Of a stretch of DNA of 64,000 nucleotides, positions 9,357 to 59,885 are shown piece after piece; position 1 is the stretch's first letter; the number at the start of each line of letters is the position of its first letter. The DNA is from Mustelus asterias (lineage: Eukaryota): the NCBI RefSeq assembly GCF_964213995.1, contig NC_135811.1:48918001-48982000 (forward strand). The letters are read 5' to 3'. The position numbers were made by a program, and so were the translations under genes. Under the pieces are notes generated by a model, which saw only the letters and a program-made list of their open reading frames with translations, searched no databases and was not told the origin of the DNA.

Positions 9357-9466
9357 ATGCCTCGGCACTCAAACGTTCCACTAATGGAAGCCCCAGATGG
9401 AGGATGGGGCTGGATGATTGTGATCAGCTGCTTCCTAGTGACTGTTTGCACGAGGGCCGTGTCCAG
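9357..9466 (+). CDS. SLC16A12: SLC16A12/MCT12 coding exon 1
   Basis: [37 protein letters not shown] matches the MCT12 N-terminus ([25 protein letters not shown]). In-frame TGA upstream at 9285. Acceptor TTTTTACAG ends at 9207; donor AG|GTTTGT at 9466/9467. Confidence 0.92.
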
Positions 9467-10114: not shown

Positions 10115-11510
10115 CTTACTGTGCTTACCCCAGTCCAATGCCGGCATCTCCACATCATGGCTAACCAGTATAAACAGAGTAAGGAGTCTAACAACACCAG
10201 GTTAAAGTCCAACAGGTTTATTTGGTAGCAAACGCCACTAGCTTTCGGAGCGCTGCTCCTTCGTCAGATGGAGTGGGAGATCTGCTCATAAACAGCAAAC
10301 AGGGCATATAAAGACACAAACTCAATTTACAGAATAATGAATAATGATTGGAATGCGAGTCTTTACAACTAATGAAGTCTTAAAGGTACAGACAATGTGA
10401 GTGGAGAGAGCATTAGCACAGGTTAAAGAGATGTGTATTGTCTCCAGACAGGACAGCCAGTGAGACTTTGCAAGTCCAGGCAAGTTGTGGGGGTTACAGA
10501 TAGTGTGACATGAACCCAAGGTCCCGGTTGAGGCCGTCCTCATGTGTGCGGAACTTGGCTATCAGTCTCTGCACAGCGACTCTGCGCTGTCGTGTGTCGT
10601 GAAGGCCGCCTTGGAGAACGCTTACCCGAATATCAGAGGCCGAATGCCCGTGATCGCTGAAGTGCTCCCCAACAGGAAGAGAACAGTCATGCCTGGTGAT
10701 TGTCGAGCGGTGTTCATTCATCCGTTGTCGCAGCGTCTGCATGGTTTCCCCAATGTACCATGCCTCGGGACATCCTTTCCTGCAGCATATCAGGTGGACA
10801 ATGTTGGCCGAGTTGCAAGAGCATGTACGGTGTACCTGGTGGATGGTGTTCTCACGTGAGATGATGGCATCCGTGTCGATGATCCGGCACGTCTTGCAGC
10901 GGTTGCTGTGGCAGGATTGTGTGGTGTCGTGGTCACTGTTCTCCTGAAGGCTGGGTAGTTTGTTGGGGAGCTCCCCTGTTGGGGAGCACTTCAGCGGTCC
11001 TGGGTGTTCGGCCTTTGATATTCGGGTAAGCATTCTCCAAGGTGGCCTTCACGATACACGACAGCGCAGAGTTGCTGAGCAGAGACGGATAGCCAGGTTC
11101 TGCACACATGAGGACGGCCTCAACCGGGACCTTGGGTTCATGTCACACTATCGGTAACCCCCACAACTTGCCTGGACTTGCAAAGTCTCACTGGCTGTCC
11201 TGTCTGGAGACAATACACATCTCTTTAACCTGTGCTAATGCTCTCTCCACTCACATTGTCTGTACCTTTAAGACTTGATTAGTTGTAAAGACTCGCATTC
11301 CAATCATTATTCATTATTCTGTAAATTGAGTTTGTGTCTTTATATGCCCTGTTTGCTGTTTATGAGCAGATCTCCCACTCACCTGACGAAGGAGCAGCGC
11401 TCCGAGAGCTAGTGGAGTTTGCTACCAAATAAACCTGTTGGACTTTAACCTGGTGTTGTTAGACTCCTTACTGTGTTTACCCCAGTCCAACGCCGGCATC
11501 TCCACATCAT
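10115..11510 (-). mobile_element. Penelope-like retroelement, 5'-truncated, GIY-YIG endonuclease domain, with an inverted copy of its 3' end
   Basis: ORF 10494-11033(-): CHSNRCKTC...CSCNSANIVHLICCRKGCPEAWYIGETMQTLRQRMNEH...PVGEHF...GLNRD. Region ~10175-10680 is mirrored at ~10972-11474. Flanking repeat AACCAGTATAA. Confidence 0.92.
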
Positions 11511-13160: not shown

Positions 13161-14595
13161 GAAAGTCCCAGGTTCTCTGCTCAAGCTGCCATGGCAACAT
13201 CAGAGTCAGGTGGGAGGTTTGTAATTAAGTAGTTGACTTAACTTGGCTTCAACCCATTCACAAATTGGGGACTAAAATGTCACAGTCAGCACTTAACTGT
13301 TTTGCACTGAACTTAGTGAGTGCGGAACAGTCCGCTCTACTTAATTCATTTGCAAGTTGGAGAAAATTTTGCCCTGCAGCTTTCACGTTGCTGGAGCAAG
13401 TTCTCCTTTTCGACTGTGAGTGAATGATTCTGTAGTTTGTGGTGCAGGCCGTTGTTTCACAACCTTAAATTGGTTTCTGGAATCTGGAGTGAAATATTAT
13501 ACTCTAGCGATCAGGAGGTAGTTACTAATTAGTCTGTTACTAATTATCGTTGGCCCAAAACCACTCAGGAACTGGATCGGAGTGCAGTGACTACACCTTA
13601 AATAAAACCTGGCCACAAATGGAACATTAATTCAGAACAATCTGGGCACACCTTCTTGGCAGTTTCGAATGCCGTTCTCCGTATCTAAGGAGCAGCTTCA
13701 AGTGTTGAGAAATCACAATTTGGATTCTGAATTGATTCGACTTACAAATCCTTCCATACATCCAAGAAACCTGTCGAGGTCAGTCTCCTGACAGCCCGTT
13801 TTCCTGCTATAATCATCCGGAGCATTTCTGGATATTTCTGATTTATTTTCTTGAGAGAAGAATGGGTGTGAAACTCTTGGTGGCATCAGGAAACGTAGGA
13901 CTCTGTGCAGTACTGCAAGCAAAGGAACTCTACAGACCTCTTTTAGTTTGAACTCTTAGAGCGATGGGCTGGAGAGGGCTTGGGGGAGGGGGGGAGAGGG
14001 TGGGTGGGAGGGGGAGTTAAGGGGTGGGATGATATGAGGCACTATGGCAGCAGAGATCTTCAACTGGTTTACCAGCTGCTTGCCAACCGACTGAGCAGCA
14101 AGTTGGCGGGAAGTAGTTGCTCATTGCTAAATCTGGGTAGCAGCAGACTCAGGGAGCTAGGATATGGTCCCTGACCCCTGGTAAGTAGATCAATGGAGCT
14201 CAACAGGAAAAAACACAGGCCTGGCAAGGAAGGGGAAAGCTCAGCTTAAGTGGGGGGGGGGGGGGGGGCAAAACAGCCTTCTAGGACCCAAATGATTACT
14301 CCTGCTCCTGAGGAAGGAATTAAAAATATTAAAATCACCTTGCCACACTTCATTGTGAACCTGTCAGTTGTCCCTGGCAGGTTTGGCCTTGCTGAAGGAG
14401 GGGGTGGTCAGGAGGCTGGGTGGGTTTCATCACTGCTCTTCTGCTCAGAACCCTATTTAAAATAACAGATCCAGCCATAATTGTGCAATTAAAATGCAAC
14501 AAATGCTAAAGGAGACCCTGGCGACCTCTGTCAGATCCGAATCTTTAAAATCACAGTAGGTTGGATCTGGGCAGGAAAGGGGTGAAATTAATTAT

Positions 14596-14761
14596 GAGGT
14601 GGAGATGCCGGCGTTGGACTGGGGTAAACACAGTAAGAAGTCTCACAACACCAGGTTAAAGTCCAACAGGTTTATTTGGTAGCAAAAGCTACCAAAAGCT
14701 CCTGGCTTTTGCTCCCAAATAAACCTGTTGGACTTTAACCTGGTGTTGTGAGACTTCTTAC
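14596..14761 (-). mobile_element. Hairpin mini-PLE insertion
   Basis: Tail plus inverted arms CAGTAAGAAGTCTCACAACACCAGG.../...CCTGGTGTTGTGAGACTTCTTACTG; TSD TGAAATTAATTAT. Confidence 0.88.
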
Positions 14762-14803
14762 TGAAATTAATTATAACAGCCCCTCTCTGCCTGATCTCTA
14801 AAG

Positions 14804-15030
14804 ACAGTAAGAAGTTTAACAACACCAGGTTAAAGTCCAACAGGTTTATTTGGTAGCAAAAGCCACACAAGCTTTCGGAGCTCTAAGCCCCTTCTTCACC
14901 TGAAGAAGGGGCTTAGAGCTCCGAAAGCTTGTGTGGCTTTTGCTACCAAATAAACCTGTTGGACTTTAACCTGGTGTTGTTAAACTTCTTACTGTGTTTA
15001 CCCCAGTCCAACGCCGGCATCTCCACATCA
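14804..15030 (+). mobile_element. Hairpin mini-PLE: perfect 95-bp inverted repeat, 35-nt tail, hammerhead-like motif
   Basis: Arms 14804-14898 and 14901-14995; tail 14996-15030; TSD TGATCTCTAAAG; CTGAAGA-A-GGGGC-TTAGA-GCTCC-GAAAGCTT at 14900-14930. Confidence 0.9.
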
Positions 15031-16164
15031 TGATCTCTAAAGGTCAGTAGGGAGTAGGGGTGTGGTGATGTGGGGAGGGGGATTGGGGGGTGGGGCGGGA
15101 TTGGGGTGAGGACTGAGGAGAGGGGAAACTAGAATCAAAGCAGTGAAGATATGAAAATCTACCGGGTAGATATGGTTGGTAAAAATCTGGAAGAGGTTTT
15201 GAATTGTAGTTTAGCACAATGCTACATTGTAGTTGGAACGGATCAGACAGCAAAGCTGAAGATGTTTTGATGCAGTCATCTTAAGATTTTCTACAAATGA
15301 GGTGAAGGAAGGTATAACATTGCAAGCAGCTGCCAAAGGAGTATTTTCTTCAAGATGTGAAATTATCAGTAGAAATTCAAATACTTCTAATGGTGGCCAC
15401 AGTGAAAAAAAGATCAAGTTGGATGATGTGATTATGGAGAGTAACCACGTTCTGGCAAACTTGGAATGACACCAGGAAAGTTAAAACAAGACATTCTGAT
15501 AATGCACCGTGTGGCTATTAAGTATTAACATATGTGGATAGGTCCCAAATGAAGATGTGTCATTACCTCTGGTGCAGACCACTGAATAACAATTATGGAA
15601 TAAGCTTGAAGTCCTGTTGCAGGTTGCCAGGCTTGGAATTTGCTTTGTTCATTCTGCAGTGTGACCGAAACTACTGAAGGCACAGCTGACAGCATGCCGG
15701 TCTCCACCCACTACTTCCTCGTGATCAGACTATTATGACTTGTTCCAGAAGAATGTGTATGTGGCATTTAATTATGCTTAAATGACTTTAAACAAATTAT
15801 TGAATTCCAGCATGTGCTTTGGTAAATGGGAGAACATTTTTCACAGCCATTTGAAAGCATAATTGCTTACAACCTGCAGGATATTACTGCTATCTGATAT
15901 GCTTCCGGCGCCTAAAAGATACTTCCAATTATGTCCATTGAATTGGAGTCCCTAGTGACTGCTCAGTTCCTTCAGTCAATAAGGTATGATTTCAGAGTTG
16001 GTGAACATAATTTTATTTGTGGTTTCCTAACTTACTCTTCCAAGTTGCACTAATTTTCTTCCAATTCTGTTTTTCAGGGAAAGTGAAGACTCAATGCTAA
16101 AATTCCAATTGACCCCAAAACAGAGCTTGGCGATCATGGCAAATAACTAATCCACATCCGTTCA

Positions 16165-20008: not shown

Positions 20009-20506
20009 TATGGGCCCGATTTTACCAAAACCTCCGGGAGCGCAATCGCGATAAAGTTGGGCGTCGGGCCTATACTGCGATCTGCACCCGATTCCGAGCA
20101 GATCCTGTCTTCACCGATACCCAATCAGGCGGCCCGACGATTTAAATGCATTAGCATGCATTTAAATCGACTTAATGAACCGCGTGCCCAACCCTACCGC
20201 CAAATCCCACTTTACCGTCTTCTGGCCCGTTCCGAATCCGCGCTTTTAGCGAACTGCCGAATAAAAGTCTGAAGCGGGTTTCTATTCTGCAGGGGAACCT
20301 CCGAAGCCCTCTCTGCCCTTGTGAAGTCACCATCCTCCTTGACCATCCTTCGTGGACCCCCCTGCTAACCACCCCGGCAGACCACCCCCCACTCCGGATC
20401 AGACCCCCCTGGGAGGCAGGGCCCCCTCGGCAGAGCACACCCCCAACCAACCTCGATCGCTGGTCTCCCTCCCCATCCTTCCGTTAGCAAGATAAGCTGT
20501 ATGTTC

Positions 20507-20633
20507 CTCAGCTAGATCCACTTTGGTCAACACAAAGATGGTCCTTCTGCCTTGTGGGTCCATCTGGCTCACCAAGTCAGTTACAATACTGTGTTCAGCA
20601 TCTACTGAACCATCTTGGATACAAGGGATAATG
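20507..20633 (-). pseudogene. OPA1: OPA1 (dynamin-like GTPase) processed fragment, inverted segment
   Basis: Reverse strand [42 protein letters not shown] matches the OPA1 G-domain, including the G4 TKVD motif. Confidence 0.9.
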
Positions 20634-20634
20634 A

Positions 20635-20824
20635 ATGGTACTGGTCGATCTTCCTGGTGCTATCAGTACTGTAACACCAGGAATGGCTGCCGACACCAAG
20701 GATATAAGTTTTAGCATAAGCAAGGCTTACATGCAGAACCCTGATGCCATTATCCTTTGTATCCAAGATGGTTCAGTAGATGCTGAACGCAGTATTGTAA
20801 CTGACTTGGTGAGCCGGATGGACC
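20635..20824 (+). pseudogene. OPA1: OPA1 processed fragment, forward segment
   Basis: [63 protein letters not shown] versus human [63 protein letters not shown] (recalled); contains G3 DLPG. Confidence 0.93.
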
Positions 20825-21585
20825 GTCACACCCCCTCTCCTTCCCCCGCCCTCCCCCCCGCCCCACCAGAAGGTGATCTGGGTCCTGCCCCCTCTCCTCC
20901 TTCCACCCTCCCCCCCCCAACCCCCGTGATGATCTGGGTCAGAGAGCTGCTCTCTTGTTTTTTTCTCCCTGCCCGGGCGCGCTGCTTCGGATTTTTTTCC
21001 AACTGCGCATGCGCAGTTCAGAGCTCTGATCATCCCGACAGCGCTAAGCCCCGCCCACAGCACGAATCGGACCGGAGCCGGTAAAACGCGTATGGGCGCA
21101 CTGGAAAGAGGATTCCAGGTGCGGACCTATTTGATGTCCAGATTCGGCACTTGGACTCAAAATGGTAAAATCAGGCCCTATATCTTTCCTAAGGTGTGGT
21201 GCCCAAAATTGCTCTAAGTATGACCTAAATGCATTTTATGTAACTATAGCATGATTTCTATCGCTTTGTATTGGAGATATAAAAACCAGCATTCCATTAG
21301 CCTCTCTGGTTACTTGCTCTACGTATTCATGTTTTTTTATAATGATGTGTATACCTGGAACAACCCAAAGATCTTTTGGAACCTTTGCTGTTTCCAGCTT
21401 TTCTCTACTTCACAAAGGCCCTGTTTAATCCTCTTTAGGTGCAGAGTGCATGATGCCACATTTGCCTGCATTGGGATCAATTATACCTGAAATCATATTT
21501 GAAAAGGCTAAGCAATTAGTGACACTCCCTTTATCGATCCCCGCTACCTTGCATTTTTTTTTACATTTCAAATGTAAATTGAATA

Positions 21586-23098: not shown

Positions 23099-23268
23099 CT
23101 AAATTGCTGCCGGGTTGTTGGGTTAGAAGTTACAGGTTCGTAATGTATATTTCGGTAACTCAAACCTATGAAGTGTGTAAAGATTAGGCTGTAGCTTTTT
23201 TTCTTTATCACCTGGCTTCTGGAGTGAAACATGCCGCTTAATAAAAAAATAATTGTTCCCTGTTGCAG

Positions 23269-23893
23269 GTTGCGGATGTGCTTTGGCTTATTCTCCAGCC
23301 ATATCAATCGTGGGGAAGTACTTCTGTAAGAGGAAAGCTATGGCATATGGATTGGCCATGTCAGGAGGTGGAATTGGAACTTTTGTTTTAGCCCCAGTGG
23401 TTCAGCTGCTGATTGAACAGTACTCTTGGCGTGGGGCATTACTGATCCTCGGAGGCCTCGTAGCTAATATATGTGTCTGTGGTGCTTTGCTGCGGCCTCT
23501 CACTCTAATAGAGGAACTATCCAGTTCCGCCATCAGTAATATTGCTGGCAGAAAAATCTCGGAGGAGGGCAGCTATAAAACACAATGTGACGAGCCGCAA
23601 CTACCCAGCCCTTCTGCAGATTCAAGTTTCATCGGAAAGGAGAGTGCTAACAAGCAACCCTGTAGCTGTTGTCCATCTTATAAAGAATACGCCTTCCTGC
23701 TGACTCCGGACTTCCTGGTATTTGCTGTATCGCTGCTGTTCTTAGCCTATGGCTGCAGCACTCCTTTTGTGCACCTTGTACCGTACGCGGTAAGCGCTGG
23801 GGTCAGCCAGCAGCAAGCAGCCTTCTTAATGTCAATTCTAGGCATCGTAAACATTGTGGGCAACATTTCATTTGGCTGGCTATCGGACAGAAG
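23269..23893 (+). CDS. SLC16A12: SLC16A12 coding exon 4
   Basis: TGTTGCAG|GT; [63 protein letters not shown]...[26 protein letters not shown]; AG|GTAAGG. Confidence 0.96.
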
Positions 23894-24415
23894 GTAAGGA
23901 TAGACACGTTTTTGATGTTATTCTGCACTAGAATGATCAGACTCATGGGCTTGAGGATAAATTGCAGCATCAGTGACGCCAAAATCACTGTCAGTGGTAT
24001 GAAGACTTGAGGTCTCAGCCCCAGGACTCAATGGCACAGGGCAGAATTGTCTGCTCAACCTCTACTGAATTCTCTGTTCAACCTACACTGAGTTTGATGC
24101 GTAACTTCTCTGGGCTCGGATAGGGAATGCCTTCTGTCATCTCCCTACCACTTCCAGAATATACCACCGTGGACATAAACGACACCAGTCTCTGTCGGTG
24201 AGCACATTATAATGACGTGCAAGGGCAGAAATCAGTCACCCCTATCCCACCACTTCTGCCAATCCGAAGAATCCCTAGGAAGGATTGAACCCATTAACTG
24301 TAAACCACGAATGAACTAAAAACATTTTCAATAACTTAAATAATTCATCTTATTCCATTGGTCCATAGGGCTTCATTTTGCCTCCTTTTTTAACCATTCT
24401 CTCAATTTTTATTTT

Positions 24416-29386: not shown

Positions 29387-30276
29387 GGCAGCACGGTGGC
29401 ACAGTGGTTAGCAAAGAACAAAGAAAATTACAGCACAGGAACAGGCCCTTTGATCCTCCAAGCCTGCACTGACCATGCTGCCCGTGTGAACTAAAATCCC
29501 CTACCCTTCCGGGGACCATATGCCTCTATTCCCATCCTATTCATGTATTCAGACGCCCCTTAAAAGTCACTATCGTATCTGCTTCCACTACCTCTCCCTG
29601 GCAGCGTGGTCCAGGCACCCAACACCCTCTGTGTAAAAAGCTTGTCTCGTACATCTCCTTTAACCCTTGCCCCTCGCACCTTAAAGCTATGCCCCCTAGT
29701 AATTGACTCTTCCACCCTGGGAAAAAGCTTCAGACTATCCACTCTGTCCATGCCCCTCATATTCTTGTAGACTTCTATCAGGTCGCCCCTCAACCTCCAT
29801 AATTCCAGTGAGAACAAACTAAGTTTCTCCAAGCACTGCTGCCTCACAGCACCAGGGACCTGGGCTTGAATCACTGTGTGGAGTTCTCCCTGTTCTGCGT
29901 GGGTTTCCTCCGGGTGCTCTGGTTTCCTTCCACAGTCATGATGTGGAGATGCAGGCGTTGGACTGGGGTAAACACAGTAAGAAGTTTAACAACACCAGGT
30001 TAAATTCCAACAGGTTTATTTGGTAGCAAAAGCCACTTTTGCTACCAAATAAACCTGTTGGACTTTAACTTGGTGTTGTTAAACTTCTTACTGTGTTCCT
30101 TCGACAGTCCAAAGATGGATTAGGTGGATTGGCCATGCTAAATTGCCCCTTAACATCCCAGAATGCGTAGGCTGGGGGTATTAGCCATGGTAAGTGTGTG
30201 GGATTGTGTAGATAGAGCGGGAGTCCGTGCAGACCCGATGGCTGAATGGCCTCTTTCTGCACTGTGGGGATTCTAT
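29387..30276 (+). mobile_element. Type A V-SINE interrupted by a CR1 3' fragment (29413-29832, - strand) and a hairpin mini-PLE (29938-30095)
   Basis: SINE head ...GGTTAGCA|CR1|AGCACTGCTGCCTC; PLE flanked by TTCCTTC(C/G)ACAGTC duplication. Confidence 0.88.
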
Positions 30277-49540: not shown

Positions 49541-50216
49541 TGTATGTCAGAGGAAGCAGCTCAATGTCATGTAGCCAAGTGCCTTTGTCACTCTCCACTG
49601 TACCACTTCCATTCTTGTGTTGCGATCAATGGAACTATTCAACTTGAACTGAAACTGACAATGAGAGCGTCATTTCAGGGAGGGTGCCAAAACCCACTGA
49701 GTCGCCTGTCAGTGCTGTCACACCAAAGGCATTTCACTGGGTCCCTTGTCCCAAGTGTAATGTTTCTCTCTCACCAATTTCCTCCCACAGTCCAAAGATG
49801 TGCGGGGTAGGTTGATTGGCCATGCTAAAATTGCCCTTAGTGTCCTGAGATGTGTAGGTTAGAGGGATTAGTGGGTAAATATGTAGGGATATGGGGGTAG
49901 GGCCTGGGCGGGATTGTGGTCGGTGCAGACTCGATGGGCCGAATGGCCTCTTTCTGTACAGTAGGGATTCTATGATTCTATGATTCTAATGCGGTAACAC
50001 ATTGGGCGCGGCTGCCTTGGTCAAGATGAATCTCACTGAGAAGCCTTGCCAGGATAAAGCCATACAGAAATGATCATAATTATGATTGTCCAAATAGCTG
50101 TTCATCTTTTAGGGTGGTGCTGTTACTGGGACGCTTGATGAACGTGTGAGGATGTAGCAGATTCTGATGTCTAAAGACAGAAGGACTTCTTCCAGGTAGC
50201 ACTGCATCTCAGGACT

Positions 50217-50425
50217 GATGTGGAGTTGCCAGCATTGGACTGGGGTGGGCACAGTAAGTAGTCTCACAACACCAGGTTAAATTCCAACAGGTTTATTTGG
50301 TAGTATGAGCTTTCGGAGCACTGCCCCTTCATCAGGTGAGTCCTGATAAAGGGGCAACGCTCCGAAAGCTTGTGCTACCAAATAAACCTGTTGGACTTTA
50401 ACCTGGTGTTGTGAGATTACTTATG
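50217..50425 (-). mobile_element. Hairpin mini-PLE with complete hammerhead-like core
   Basis: Tail plus inverted arms; TSD TCTCAGGACTGATG; reverse strand CTGATGA-A-GGGGC-AGT-GCTCC-GAAA-GC-TC at 50335-50307. Confidence 0.85.
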
Positions 50426-50699
50426 TCTCAGGACTGATGCATGCCCTTGAGGCAGCCTAATCCTTCATAGCACCGGGGTAATGTGAGCAATCCATGTAAC
50501 ATTGCAGTGTCATCAAGTAACTCGTGTGAAATTTAAATTGTGTGAAATATGTGAAGCAGCAATGTTGGTGTTGATGCTGGCCCATGGTGGAGGAGACGTA
50601 TCCAGCAGTGTCCTCACTGCATCTTATCGTCCTCCTCCTGAGGGCCTCACATCTGGCCAGCACAATGGCCTCTTCCCCTCTTCCTCAGCTTCCAGGACC

Positions 50700-51822: not shown

Positions 51823-52262
51823 GGGCCCGATTTTACCATTTGGATTCTAAGTGCTGAATATGGACACAATTCAGATCCGACTTGGAAACCTGCTCTCAGG
51901 CGTCCCCATACGCATTCAGCCTGAAAAAAAATCACGGGTCTGAATCGTGCTGTGGGCGGGGCTTATCGCGCCCAAAACGCTGCTGCTCCGATCGGAGCCT
52001 CGAACTGCGCACGCGCGGTGAAAACAAATTTGAAAAACACGCCCCTGTCACATCACTCCCAGGCCACAGAAAGCAGATAAAGCGGCCCGGGAGCGAAAGG
52101 CGGGAGCGATGGCCCCCACAGATATCGCCCCACCCCCACAACATAACTGTCGCCCTCATCCACCCACCCCCCCCACTCCGCTACCCAGATCAATCGCAAC
52201 CCTCTGCCCCCCTTTTCCCCCACCAATCGCCCGCAGGGTGCCAGCGGTTCCCCCCCCCTCCC

Positions 52263-52296
<34 letters not shown>

Positions 52297-52793
52297 CAAC
52301 CCCCCACCAGAAATCCATCTGGTCTTCCTTTCCCTCCTCCTCCCCTCCCGCACCAGAGAAACATCTGACCGGCCTCCCTCCTCCCTCCCCCCCACCAGAG
52401 AATGATCTGGCCCGCCTCCCTCCATCACCCCCACCACGGATCTGAGTGAGAGAGCCGTTGGAAGCTCTGAACTTACCTCTTCAGAAGCTGGAGTGCCCGA
52501 AACAGACCTTTCCGAGCGTGTCCGTTTCGCGCCGAATCTGGACGCACGAACGCGATGGTAAAGTGGGAAATGCTGGTAAAGTTGGGCGGGCAGCCTATTA
52601 AATCAATTTAAATGCATGCAAATGCATTTAAATCGCTGTTGCGCCCTTTCGGGTGCGGTTCGGATCGTGGCCATTTTTGGGCCCTGGTAACGTGGGCATC
52701 TGCTTGGGCGCGGATCGCACTAATCGCCTCACACCTGACTTTACCAAGTTTTCCGCCCGAAAATGGGCACGACGCAATGGTAAAATCGGGCCC
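51823..52793. mobile_element. Non-autonomous PIF/Harbinger-type element (relative of 20012-21178 without the OPA1 insert)
   Basis: Perfect TIR GGGCCCGATTTTACCATT...AATGGTAAAATCGGGCCC. Confidence 0.88.
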
Positions 52794-53671: not shown

Positions 53672-56402
53672 TTAGTTTTCATTGGGAGAGTGATTGTCAT
53701 CCTCGATGGAAAGGCGTAATTCACAAAGAGCACTTAGATATGTTTCATTGTCAGGATCAAACTCCAAAGCCTTTTCAAAGCATTTAATAGCTTCACATCT
53801 CTCCCCATCCAGCTGGTGCAGGAACCCATAAACACCAAGGGCCTTGCTTTCTCTCGGATTCCGGCGAAGGTGTCTTGCTGCTATCATCTCCAGGTTTTCT
53901 CGACACTTTTTCTGTTCTATTGAGTCATAATTGACTTTCATTCCTTCCAGAAAATGGGCGATAGCATTTGATTCTGATTTAATGTGATTTAGTTCAAATA
54001 ACCCAGCCTGTAAACATATTGCCTGTTTATTCTCTGGACGTATACCCTTCAGTGTCAGTAAGTGGTTATAGATCTCTTTTGCTTTGCGATATTCTTCATT
54101 TAATGAACAGATTCCTACAAAAACCAGGTGTGCCTTAATAGATGTTAATGGTCGGTTTTCAAAAGCTTTTTGAAAATGAAACTTGCACAGTTTGATCAGT
54201 TCAGCTCTTTGTTGAAGAGCAGCATTGCGAGGACCTTTGCTGTCTGGATATTTCATCAGTTCGTCCAATTTTGTTCTGTAACACACACCTACTTGATGGT
54301 GTAAGAAGGTAGAGTTTGGGGTCATTTCTAATCCTTTCTTCACCAATTCCATCGATTTTTCCATATCTCCTTTTTTCCTGTAAAAAATTGCTGCATAACG
54401 AAGCACAAATGAAAGATCAGGGGATTTCTGCAACGCTTCTTCAACTAACTTAACTCCTTCTTCCTTCTGATTGAACTGTTGTAGTTTTAGAGCCAGCAGC
54501 ACCATGGCTACAGTGTGATCTGGATCAAGCTCCAGCACACGTCTCCACTGCTTCACTGATTCAACTGGTCAACAATTTTCTAGAGTTCCAGGAAATTGCT
54601 CCAGGCGAAACAGAGCAGTCGCGTATTCAACATTCCAATCAATATTATCCGTATCTTCCTCCAGAGCCTTTATAAAACATTCCTTTGCTTCTTCATAATA
54701 TTGAGCTGCCATTTTCAGCAGTGACCAACCCTTCTCCCCGTACACTTCAGGTATCATTGCTGTATACCGAGAGGCATCAGGAAATTGTTGACAGATCCTC
54801 TCCAGTTTGTCGAGGTAGGACTGAGCCTCTGTCAGTTGTGTCCCATGCGATAATTGACCCAGGCACGGTTTCCATAGGTGACGATGATTCTTTTTTCAAA
54901 TTCATCTTCATGATTCTCCCTCAGAATCTTTTCAGCTTCCTGTAAGTTTTGGATCGCCTCCTCACAGTTTCCTTGCAGACAGTTTACAAAAGCGAGTTGG
55001 TTGTAAGACGTGGCTCAATATATCACATCAAGCTGTATTGAATCTTCTAATCTTTGCTTCATATCATCCAAGTCAATGTTTTCTTTCTGTGGCGCCCACG
55101 TGAAGTGACATTGAAGCTGATCGAGCTTCACTTTCAACAAATCCTTCTCTTGGTCACTGCAAGAGAAAGAAAAATCATCAAAACCCATCTCAGACTAACT
55201 GAAACAGGCTCTTCTCCCTCAATCCATTTTTTTTAGCTAATAACTGTTACTGACTCCTGGATTCAATGGCCATGAACCCTCTAGTCGAGGAACGATGGTT
55301 TCTGCACATGAAGCTCCAAAAGGAAATTGATTTCTCAATTCAGCTTTCTGTTGAAAAGCAGGATTGTGAGGATCTTCACTGCCTAGATCAGTTTTTTTCA
55401 TTTTGGTCCTGTAACACTGACCTATTTGTCCATATGGTGTAAGAAGGTGGAGTGTGAGCTAATTTCCGATTTTAATTTGCGCCCTTGGCTATTCAGTTCA
55501 AACTACAACCACTGTCCTTTTGCGTCAGTTTACGTCAGTTTTCTTACCCTCTACAGTCATTTTCATTTTCAGCAAGTCATTTTCCTTCTCTTACCCATTT
55601 TAACTGGAATTCCTAATCTAAGTCCCATAATACAATCCCTATAACATTGAGCCAGGGACCCAGGTTCGACTCCCGGCTTGGATCACTGTCTGCGCAGAGT
55701 CTGCATGTTCTCTCCGTGTCTGCGTGGGTTTCCTCCGGGTGCTCGGGTTTCCTCCCACAGTCTAAATACGTGCTGTTTAGGTACATTGGCCATGCTACAT
55801 TCTCCCCCAGTGTACCCGAACAGGAACTGGAACGTGGTGCCTCGGGGATTTTCACAGTAACTTCATTGCAGTGTTAATGAAAGCCTACTTGTGACACTAA
55901 TAAATAAACTTTTAACTTTTAACATTCACTCCTGTCCAACACAGTTCATGCTGTGCTCTCCCTTTAACTTTATGTTTCTGATTGCTTTCTGTTATGTGTA
56001 CATAAGTGCTGAAAATCACAATTTCACATGAGTAAACCCTATCCAGATTACCTTGGACTGGAAATTATTTGTTTCCCTTCACAGACTGCAAACGAGCAGA
56101 GGGCACTGACAGGACACAAGTATAAGATCTGATCTTGTACATCAATGGAGATCAAATGGCAACCTTTTAATTTGAATTTGAATGGTTAACCAGTATAAAG
56201 AAACGAACAAATCTGTTTCCTGATCGTCGCTAATCTTGGCCCAGCATCACACCTTCTCGCTGTCAATGAATAATTCCAGCTTTACACATTTTGACTGCTT
56301 TGCGATTGCATGCTAATTTCTTTCTGAAAGCCAGCTCCTCACTCAAGAGCCTGCACACAAATATCAATACCAAAGAAGTTCCCATCATCCTTACCTCATC
56401 AT
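53672..56402 (-). pseudogene. IFIT-family (IFIT5/IFIT1-like TPR) pseudogene, copy 1: exon 1 ATGATGAG (56402-56395), exon 2 55156-53672
   Basis: ATGAG|GTAAGG micro-exon and TTGCAG|T acceptor; SDQEKDLLKVKLDQLQCHFTW...YNQLAFV...VTYGNRAWVNY...EVYGEKGWSLLK...LELDPDH...VLRYAA.FYR..G...LHHQVGVCYR. Lesions: TGA 55017-55015, 2-nt insertion ~54839-54840, TGA 54571-54569. Confidence 0.92.
55650..55922 (+). mobile_element. HE1-like V-SINE (type B) in the IFIT copy 1 intron
   Basis: B-box GGTTCGACTCCC, core and type B tail. Confidence 0.88.
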
Positions 56403-57353: not shown

Positions 57354-59885
57354 TTATGAACAGATCTCTGCAAAAAGCAAGTGTGGTTTAATAGATGTTA
57401 ATGGTCGGCTTTCAAAAGCTTTTTGAAAATGAAACTTGCATAGTTTGATCAGTTCAGCTCTTTGTTGAAGAGCAGCATTGCAAGGACCTTTGCTGTCTGG
57501 ATATTTCATCAGTTCATACAACCTGGTTCTGTAGCACAGACCTATTTGATGGTGTAAGAAGGTAGAGTTTGGGGTAATTTCTAATCCTTTCTTCAACAGA
57601 TCCACAGCTTTTTCCACATCTCCTTTTGTTCTGTAAAACTTTGCAGCATAACGAAGCACGTATGGAAGATCAGGGGATTTCTGCAACGCTTCCTCAATGA
57701 ATTTCAGTGCTTCTTCCTTCTGATAGAACTGTTGTAGTTTTAGAGCCAGCAGCACCATGGCTACAGTGTGATCTGGATCAAGCTCCAGCACACGTCTCAA
57801 CTGCTTCATTGCTTCACTGGGCCCACGACTCTCTGGGGTACCAGAAAACCATTCCAGACGAAACAGAACAGTCGCATATCCAACATTCCATTCCGTGTTA
57901 TCCGGATCTTCCTCCAGAGCCTTTTTAAAACATTCCATTGCATCTTCATAATATTGACTCGTACAATTCAGCAGTGACCAACCCTTCTCCCCGTACACTT
58001 CAGGTATCATTGCTGTATACCGAGAGGCATCAGGAAATTGTTGACAGATCCTCTCCAGTTTGTCGAGGTAGGACTGAGCCTCTGTCAGTTGTCCCATGTG
58101 ATAATTGACCCAGGCACGATTTCCATAGGTGACGATGATTCTTTTTTCAAATTCATCTTCATTATTCTCCCTCAGAATCTCTTCAGTTCCCTGTAAGTTT
58201 TGAATCGCCTCCTCACAGTTTCCTTGCAGACAGTTTACAAAAGCGAGTTGGTTGTAAGACGTGGCTCAATATATCACATCAAGCTGTATTGAATCTTCTA
58301 ATCTTTGCTTCATATCATCCAAGTCAATGTTTTCTTTCTGTGGCGCTCACGTGAAATGACATTGAAGCCAATCGAGCTTCACTTTCAACAAATCCTTCTC
58401 TTGGTCACTGCAAGAGAAAAAAAATCATCAAAACCCATCTCAGACTAACTGAGACACCTCCTCCCATTTGGTTTTTGAAGCATTCTCCTGATTCCTGGAC
58501 TCAGTAAATACTCTGGTCACAAGAGATGGTCTCTGCACACCACCTGCAAGTTCTCCTCCAAGACATTCACTATCCTGACCTGGAAATATATTGGCCGTTC
58601 TTTTGCAGTCGCTGGGTCAAAATCCTGGAATTCCCTTCCTAACGGCATTTGGGTCAAACCATAGCACATGGGCTGCAGCATTTCAAGAAGGCTGGTCACC
58701 GCCACCTTCTCAAGGGCAACCAGGGATGGGCAATAAATGCTGGCCAGCCAGCGACACCCATGTCCCACCAATGAATAAAAAGATAGGAAATGTGAGGACT
58801 ACACCGCTTCCTCATATTTCCTTCATGGTGACTGTTGTATTAGCTCCTGGTCTGTTAGTCACTGTTCAGTAACACCACAACCACCTCCTCTCACAATGAC
58901 ATGAACAGGAGCATTATCTGAATTTCTGTCTTACATTTGCCCAGTGCATCTCCCTGTTTTTCTTGCATTCTAATCTGCAATAAGAGCATCCTCACTACAT
59001 TGTGCATGTTAATTCTAAAACACTTCCCCTTTCATTCCCAGTCCGCAGGGAAGCCTCAAGACCAGGAAGTCCGCTTTGCAGACAAAGGTGACAAGGGGTG
59101 GATTGGGGCTTGTGGATGAGATGATGGAGGGTGATTGATCCAAAAGAGGGGGAAATTCAGGCTTGGACATGTGACTACAAAACAGGATTAACTTAGTGAT
59201 CGGGACAATTTATTGGCAAAATGCAAAGACCCCTTGAATTTGCATTGCAAGTGTAGATTGTTGTATGTATATTGTTTTTACAGAAGCTATGTGACTTGTA
59301 TATGCTGTATCCAATCAAAACAATCCACCAACATGGAGGGTGAGGCTGAATGGCCTATTTCTGTCTTGCACGTACCATGCAATCAATTCTGCCTCCTGTG
59401 CTGTCAATATAATTTCTCCTTTCCAGTGTTGCCTTGGGCAGGCATCCTTAAATATTCACATGCAAGTCACATATAAGCTGCTAGTTACTGTACTTGAACT
59501 GGGAGTGAATTGCTAGCCTTTATTCAATGTGTAATGTAACACCACACAATCTGTGTTGTTAGTAATTCATTTGCCTTCTGAATAATAGTTACCAATAAAA
59601 TAGCTTTGGAAAGTGAGTAGGTGCGTGCTTCATTGAGATTCGAACTAATTCATTGATTTGAATTATTAATCAATAACAATTAAAAAAATATCTTCCTATT
59701 GTTTTATGCTTTACAACAATCAGTGGCCTTGGTAAGCAAAACACCCTCTCACAGCGAATAAATAATTCCTGGTCTGTGTTCCAACTGCTTTGTAAAAGTA
59801 TGCTAGTTTCTGAAAACAAGCTCTGGGTTCAGTCGTCTACACACCGGTGTCAATACTAAAGCAATTCTGATGAGCTTTACCTCAT
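57354..59885 (-). pseudogene. IFIT-family pseudogene, copy 2, 3'-truncated: exon 1 ATGAG (59885-59881), exon 2 58407-57354
   Basis: ATGAG|GTAAAG; acceptor equivalent to copy 1; CHFT* (TGG>TGA 58349-58347); TGA 58268-58266. ORF 58097-57354 is TPR-rich, and similarity to copy 1 ends abruptly at ...EICS*. Confidence 0.92.

Follow-up and report, generated by a model that had tools for sequence, protein, structure and literature searches.

In the genome of the shark Mustelus asterias, a cut-and-paste transposon has multiplied a gene sequence derived from RNA some 500-fold, here in a vertebrate. The cargo comes from the mitochondrial gene OPA1, and both its spliced origin and the family status of its carriers are near certain. 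The copy from which the family is described lies in the window, the whole stretch of 64,000 nt analysed here. It sits in an intron of an MFS-type transporter gene, possibly SLC16A12, downstream of an exon near 9393 whose product has a PDGGWGW motif and ahead of the exon at 23253..23894.

The 16-bp ends of the window copy (20012-20027 and 21163-21178) are complementary at 15 of 16 positions and have TAT on both sides, in agreement with a preliminary description of the window as holding an inverted-repeat element with TAT duplications. That description also reported about 320 bp of OPA1 in two divergent segments; the segments are there, but they extend over about 340 bp and are the remnant of a 2.9-kb cargo. 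The translation of 20635-20823 is OPA1 and aligns with residues 394-456 of human OPA1 (E 5e-28), and the forward piece matches Dynamin_N. Leaving aside one fusion record from an invertebrate, which ranks first, the cargo protein is closest to the OPA1 proteins of sharks (87%, against a decayed copy).

The join between the reverse arm (20504..20633) and its outer tip (20482..20510) marks a deletion of ~980 nt, and the remaining 1.5 kb of the forward arm is deleted as well. The 77-nt arms left in the cargo are 96% complementary, with a predicted RNA fold of -196 kcal/mol (z -16.9). The element has no coding sequence of its own.

Table 1. Features of the window copy and its surroundings (window positions; cargo positions count along the forward OPA1 arm)
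Feature	Position	Strand	Remark
Left target duplication, TAT	20009..20011		abuts left end
Left 16-bp terminal inverted repeat	20012..20027	+	transposase-coding elements have the same end
Left transposon arm	20012..20481	+	last 70 bp 86-87% identical to transposase-coding Harbinger elements
Outer tip of ancestral reverse OPA1 arm	20482..20510	-	cargo 1229-1257; gene exon C3:37293385-37293413
Reverse OPA1 arm	20504..20633	-	cargo 116-245; one intron spliced out
Forward OPA1 arm	20634..20824	+	cargo 1-193; two introns spliced out
77-bp inverted repeat	20557-20633 / 20748-20824		114-nt loop; remnant of 1.14-kb fold-back
Right transposon arm	20825..21178	+	C-rich minisatellite and subterminal motifs
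Right 16-bp terminal inverted repeat	21163..21178	-	near-perfect complement of left end
Right target duplication, TAT	21179..21181		abuts right end
MFS_1-matching open frame	23253..23894	+	next exon of host transporter gene
Distant Harbinger-type relative without OPA1	51823..52793	-	not an empty site

The parent OPA1 gene was located with an acceptor-anchored pattern that has one genomic match, and the 200 kb around it contain the whole gene on the minus strand (G000:C3, 37350320-37261211). Three separate exons of this gene correspond to the forward piece. The two introns that part them measure 561 and 1418 nt, both with GT-AG borders, and the second is crossed by the reverse piece too. The tip at 20482-20510 is identical (29/29) to part of an exon that lies some 30 kb farther on in the gene. 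Since these introns are present in the gene and missing from the cargo, the template was spliced. The preliminary description had placed introns at both positions and proposed an mRNA or cDNA template, while allowing that shark OPA1 might lack them; both are found. In the forward arm of the longest cargo, 16 introns totalling about 62 kb are absent.

The fold-back and the deletion each leave a chimeric junction by which the family can be counted. Exact matches in the genome number 334 for the 19-nt centre junction and 312 for the 20-nt deletion junction of the short form, while the reversed patterns have none. The 348-nt cargo as query gave 567 first-look candidates, and 40 of 40 scored were near full length at 97–100%. 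The exact centre is also present at 44 of 70 short-form places (contigs C1-C5), and a rough estimate for the genome is ~530 centre-bearing copies.

Both ends are present in 44 of 57 short loci, which comprise the 20 best matches to the window copy and 37 from the junction lists. Exact 3-bp duplications flank 30 of the 44, against a mean of 3.7 and a maximum of 11 after shuffled pairing; in a subset of 29, duplications number 20 at 3 bp, none at 4 bp and two at 2 bp. The duplicated triplets are A/T only in 24 of 30 and TAA or TTA in eight. The short copies have a median length of 1250 bp and unrelated flanks, except for four pairs located in other repeats. Hundreds of copies thus share junctions but have different flanks and 3-bp duplications of their own, which bears out the mobility and the multiple copies suspected earlier. 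Three short copies (L011, L144 and L158) have left flanks 97-98% identical, which suggests a compound element that was mobile as a whole.

Chimeric junctions are also bridged in contigs of four runs, with four organism labels from two studies. Bridging meant at least 31 letters on each side, and among the pieces listed every run has at least one junction: the left edge in X1, the short-form deletion in both X2 and X11, and the centre in X4. The contigs of X4 and X11 additionally show the long-form continuation, and X1 may be the assembled species itself.

An OPA1_C profile search gave at least 120 matches (117 scored of 157 candidates), and these look like separate retrocopies. Read by domain search alone, the family would appear as dozens of them. 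Repeated, separate retrotransposition of OPA1 mRNA, or an artefact of assembly, would nevertheless have to produce identical internal junctions at more than 300 places, inverted ends with 3-bp duplications and a divergence between copies and consensus of about 2%, and an artefact would have to recur in the bridging contigs of four runs from two studies. The shared junctions refute such an origin, to which we give practically no weight. All examined loci fit one single capture.

About 74 loci, the parent gene aside, keep longer OPA1 pieces. Structure was read in 20 of them, mostly top matches, and in 40 further loci, and a transposon arm or end stands beside the cargo in all 20 and all 40. Of the 20 long loci, 15 have both ends, and 11 of these 15 have exact duplications, one at an outer nested element. 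The two fullest copies (L051, about 3.7 kb, and L061) run from the left arm through reverse OPA1 1257 to 116 and forward OPA1 1 to 1719 into the right arm. Their inverted OPA1 arms measure 1141 and 1130 bp at 96-97% identity, so that the ancestral cargo of 2.9 kb includes a 1.14-kb inverted duplication.

The forward arm begins at the Met of MVLVDLPG and stops about 14 nt past the stop codon. None of the 60 loci exceeds the limits of forward 1-1719 and reverse 1257-116, apart from flips of the centre; these occur in L052 and L059, as expected from crossover between the arms. The short form differs by two deletions, one joining reverse 245 to 1229 and the other forward 193 to the right arm. The window copy is a double-deletion derivative of the ~3.7-kb ancestor. 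In a right-arm tree of 76 of 92 sequences, the long copies mostly cluster together, although about 200 bp is too short for a firm order.

The most gene-like cargo is that of L048, which keeps the base of the gene at 9 of 14 diagnostic sites. This locus (L048:2560-5500) is nested or recombinant, with three right ends, older-type ends and a third, unrelated interior of 600 bp. The ancestor, many intermediates, the parent gene and coding relatives all survive in one genome, in which the capture route, the decay of the palindrome and conversion between its arms can be studied directly.

In its ends, 3-bp target duplications and coding relatives, the carrier fits a non-autonomous Harbinger-type (PIF/Harbinger) DNA transposon; that only eight of the 30 duplications are TAA or TTA counts against it. 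A DDE_Tnp_4 search gave 10689 candidates, of which 150 were scored, and 20 of 25 DDE loci have similarity to the arms of the window element or of its window relative within 1.5 kb. In three transposase-coding loci (L110, L113 and L116), both ends are present and the 3-bp duplications agree. The coding relatives reach 132-140 bits for Pfam DDE_Tnp_4, and one frame tested for Myb/SANT gave 19.6 bits (cut-off 21.7). The 70 bp just left of the cargo are common to L110-L113 at 86-87%.

The relative at 51823-52793 has no OPA1 insert, as stated in the preliminary description, but it is a poor comparator for the element. Its ends are only 74-80% alike and its flanks (ACA and ATT) form no matching duplication. 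An empty version of the element was considered and rejected for it, because it belongs to a distant family with similarity at the ends only.

Two further groups were noted. A sister subfamily with the same ends (L062:6036-6730; L073-L084) has a different, AT-rich cargo of 700 bp in at least 40 copies (191 candidates). Both ends are present in 7 of 12 of its loci, four of them with exact duplications; its cargo has no long open frame, and a source locus for it was not found. A very young Harbinger transposase family (L085-L088, L092 and L105; L114:1498-2742) is 98-100% identical, with open frames of 411-435 aa, mostly on small contigs.

The three junctions of the cargo bear on how it was captured. 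At the left one, transposon sequence that continues in the relatives is missing, and 2 nt overlap with OPA1. The centre shares 1 nt, with a 5-nt motif on both sides within a few bases and 4 nt doubled. At the right one, OPA1 similarity ends beside a candidate splice donor, with ~17 nt following it. These 17 nt have no convincing match in the 150 kb downstream of the last coding OPA1 exon, and a 20-nt match of the right edge falls in an unrelated, decayed LINE-like stretch. They were rejected as the next OPA1 exon; an acceptor-anchored pattern for them matched once, at a family copy.

Comparison of the cargo edges suggests a deletion rather than a target duplication around the insert, as judged on relatives 65-87% alike. 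One strict gapped pattern for a cargo-free parent with the same two arms gave no match. No poly(A) follows the forward arm in any of the 20 long loci, in line with the earlier remark on an RNA-derived cargo without such a tail.

The family has multiplied to hundreds of copies, and we consider it probable that its cargo was acquired a single time, when a break in the element was patched with reverse-transcribed OPA1 sequence. In the germline, such a break would be repaired on OPA1 mRNA as template, using the reverse transcriptase of a retroelement, with priming just past the stop codon and not at the poly(A). After 1.72 kb, the cDNA end would fold back on the 5-nt microhomology and copy 1.14 kb of itself, and the folded cDNA would then join the other break end with loss of some transposon sequence. 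The Harbinger transposase of related coding elements could move the resulting 3.7-kb chimera. Various deletions would then remove parts of the unstable palindrome, and one double-deletion form of ~1.25 kb would become dominant.

The short loop weakly favours one self-primed cDNA over two independent cDNAs. In the latter case, both broken or nicked ends of the element would prime on OPA1 mRNA and the two cDNAs would be joined head to head. Both arms do face outward, each with its 3′ end against transposon sequence; two cDNA ends could anneal through the complementary 5-nt motifs at the centre, and the microhomology there is explained just as well by two cDNAs, one primed from each end. Yet the same 1.14 kb would have to be copied twice, and both cDNAs would have to stop within 115 nt while ~1.3 kb of coding mRNA was still upstream. 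Usual twin priming, moreover, leaves a small overlap and one arm with a poly(A) end, which counts against it here. We regard this origin as rather unlikely.

The cargo could also derive from an ordinary retrocopy made elsewhere, which the element would have taken up as DNA. On this Pack-TIR route, gap repair or template switching would bring in the sequence and create the fold-back, and the donor would since have been lost or been missed. This would account for the missing poly(A). The sister subfamily puts a second, non-coding-looking cargo in the same backbone and L048 a third, which points to repeated capture of DNA. Against it, no free-standing OPA1 retrocopy was found among the 60 loci fetched for structure (which include 20 of the ~74 long ones), and the 132 OPA1 residues upstream of the cargo, as query, found the gene's own exons only (4 of 12 scored candidates matched).

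The base differences from the gene bear on the same question. The cargo consensus differs from the gene by about ten silent, four missense and 13 element-private missense changes, and at the four missense sites outgroup sharks side with the cargo or vary towards it. The gene's base is kept in some copy at 12 of the 13 private sites, although a few single reversions to it may be back-mutation. Hence, at the onset of amplification, the cargo still differed little from the mRNA, with at most one or two private missense changes fixed in 1.7 kb. This leaves little neutral time and argues against a long-lived retrocopy as the donor; a short-lived one captured as DNA would leave nearly the same trace. 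On the whole, we hold uptake at the DNA level to be quite unlikely. Of the two origins offered in the preliminary description, a cDNA patch and a landed retrocopy, the evidence leans to the patch without fully separating them.

A short-form copy (L032) lies inside OPA1's own intron (G000:C3:37294840-37295990), some 1.4 kb ahead of the exon at which the reverse arm terminates. This copy is without the left end and has an older-type right tip. Assuming uniform insertion, the chance of any family copy falling within the 89-kb gene is about 1.3%. L032 was rejected as the founder: it is short-form, has no left end and is of the older type only in its last ~90 bp, which makes it a recombinant.

The copies diverge from their consensus by 2.2% (38 short and 20 long), the window copy by 1.7%, so the burst is old. 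At the slow rates of sharks, its age comes to tens of millions of years. In the forward frame, the copies have 481 missense, 33 stop and 165 silent mutations (vs 4026 and 1077 possible changes), a spectrum near neutral expectation, and decay neutrally. A protein-coding role was rejected: the consensus is open for 567 codons, but all 12 full-coverage copies have stops and/or deletions and the spectrum is near neutral.

Of 132 private variants in the reverse arms of long copies, 45 recur in the copy's own forward arm, against 1.7% in other elements; in the short copies, 0 of 44 do (Fisher P 4e-7). This suggests conversion between the long arms, which polishing of palindromes could mimic. A>G looks enriched in the pooled mutation counts. 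A-to-I editing of the template was rejected, with no enrichment among single-copy changes (forward, 63 A>G on 563 A and 34 T>C on 418 T; reverse, 21 and 22).

Most likely, the cargo is a passenger. A bolder and improbable proposal is that Harbinger elements of sharks recurrently repair internal breaks with reverse-transcribed mRNA and that the OPA1 hairpins, read through in host introns at many sites, yield small RNAs 96-98% matching OPA1, an essential mitochondrial gene, a cost that favoured the reduction of the hairpin from 1.14 kb to 77 bp. Gene-derived inverted duplications yield small RNAs in maize Mu killer and in the pseudogene hairpins of mouse oocytes. Like these, the shark element has a long hairpin with almost the same sequence as a host mRNA; unlike them, most of its copies have cut the hairpin to 77 bp. 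A processed pseudogene made by LINEs has the intron loss in common with the cargo, but no poly(A) or LINE tail was found in the latter in the 20 long loci.

Among the sources covered, the closest precedent is the amplification of retrogenes by Helitrons in Myotis bats. According to the main text of that report, nested retrogenes were amplified in four cases to 118 copies in all, which its authors called the first report for any DNA transposon; these four inserts have poly(A) and duplications of their own, and other captured retrogenes are without duplications (Thomas et al. 2014, PMC4224331). Common to both systems is a DNA transposon that contains host sequence from spliced RNA and amplifies it. 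The bat carriers are rolling-circle elements, whereas the shark carrier is cut-and-paste with inverted ends, and its cargo has no poly(A), a long fold-back and one family of about 500 copies.

The element works like a Pack-TIR; what is new is an RNA-derived cargo multiplied by a cut-and-paste element. By the main text of the animal Pack-TIR survey (Tan et al. 2021, PMC8277862), intronless cargo of multi-exon parents was discarded by design, only five multicopy families are described, those given as examples having three or four copies, a retrogene present once (ARF6 in MER20) is noted as an ambiguous case, and the words "Harbinger" and "shark" are absent. The class of RNA-derived cargo was thus filtered out by the main survey, as its text presents the method. 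Pack-TIRs as given there and the shark element alike have host sequence between inverted ends and short microhomology at breakpoints, and the multicopy ones likewise share one chimeric structure with distinct target duplications. The survey's text defines Pack-TIRs by duplication at the DNA level, whereas the shark element has lost 16 introns.

Pack-PIF elements of maize and rice carry gene fragments in clusters of >100 copies with 3-bp duplications, and the model given for their capture is uptake of the DNA that lies between neighbouring insertions, with the words "intron" and "retro" absent from the main text (Gisby and Catoni 2022, PMC8903248). In that account, they are PIF/Harbinger elements with gene fragments, as is the shark element, but of plants. 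PIF/Harbinger (PHIS) elements are characterised, in the texts consulted, by short inverted ends, a 3-bp AT-rich duplication and relatives with DDE transposase (PMC4482050, PMC2836001); the target preference of the shark element looks looser than the TWA given for them. A VGP preprint, in the text consulted, filters repeat-masked candidates in its retrocopy method and does not name OPA1 (PMC13320880). In the literature covered, with most subscription journals and the repeat databases outside its scope, nothing was found on this OPA1 family or on cDNA cargo in Harbinger.

The window has other features besides. An open frame of 881 aa on the minus strand at 2-2644, with a GDSL/OSK-like domain at its C-terminus, is possibly a retroelement ORF1, we presume. 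Two TPR-rich open frames, also on the minus strand (53675-54568 and 57357-58265), we take to be likely IFIT-type genes, going by their synteny with SLC16 genes. Near-palindromic repeats of one family (10171-11479, 14591-15034, 29936-30112 and 50216-50428) include a 506-bp inverted pair at 96%.
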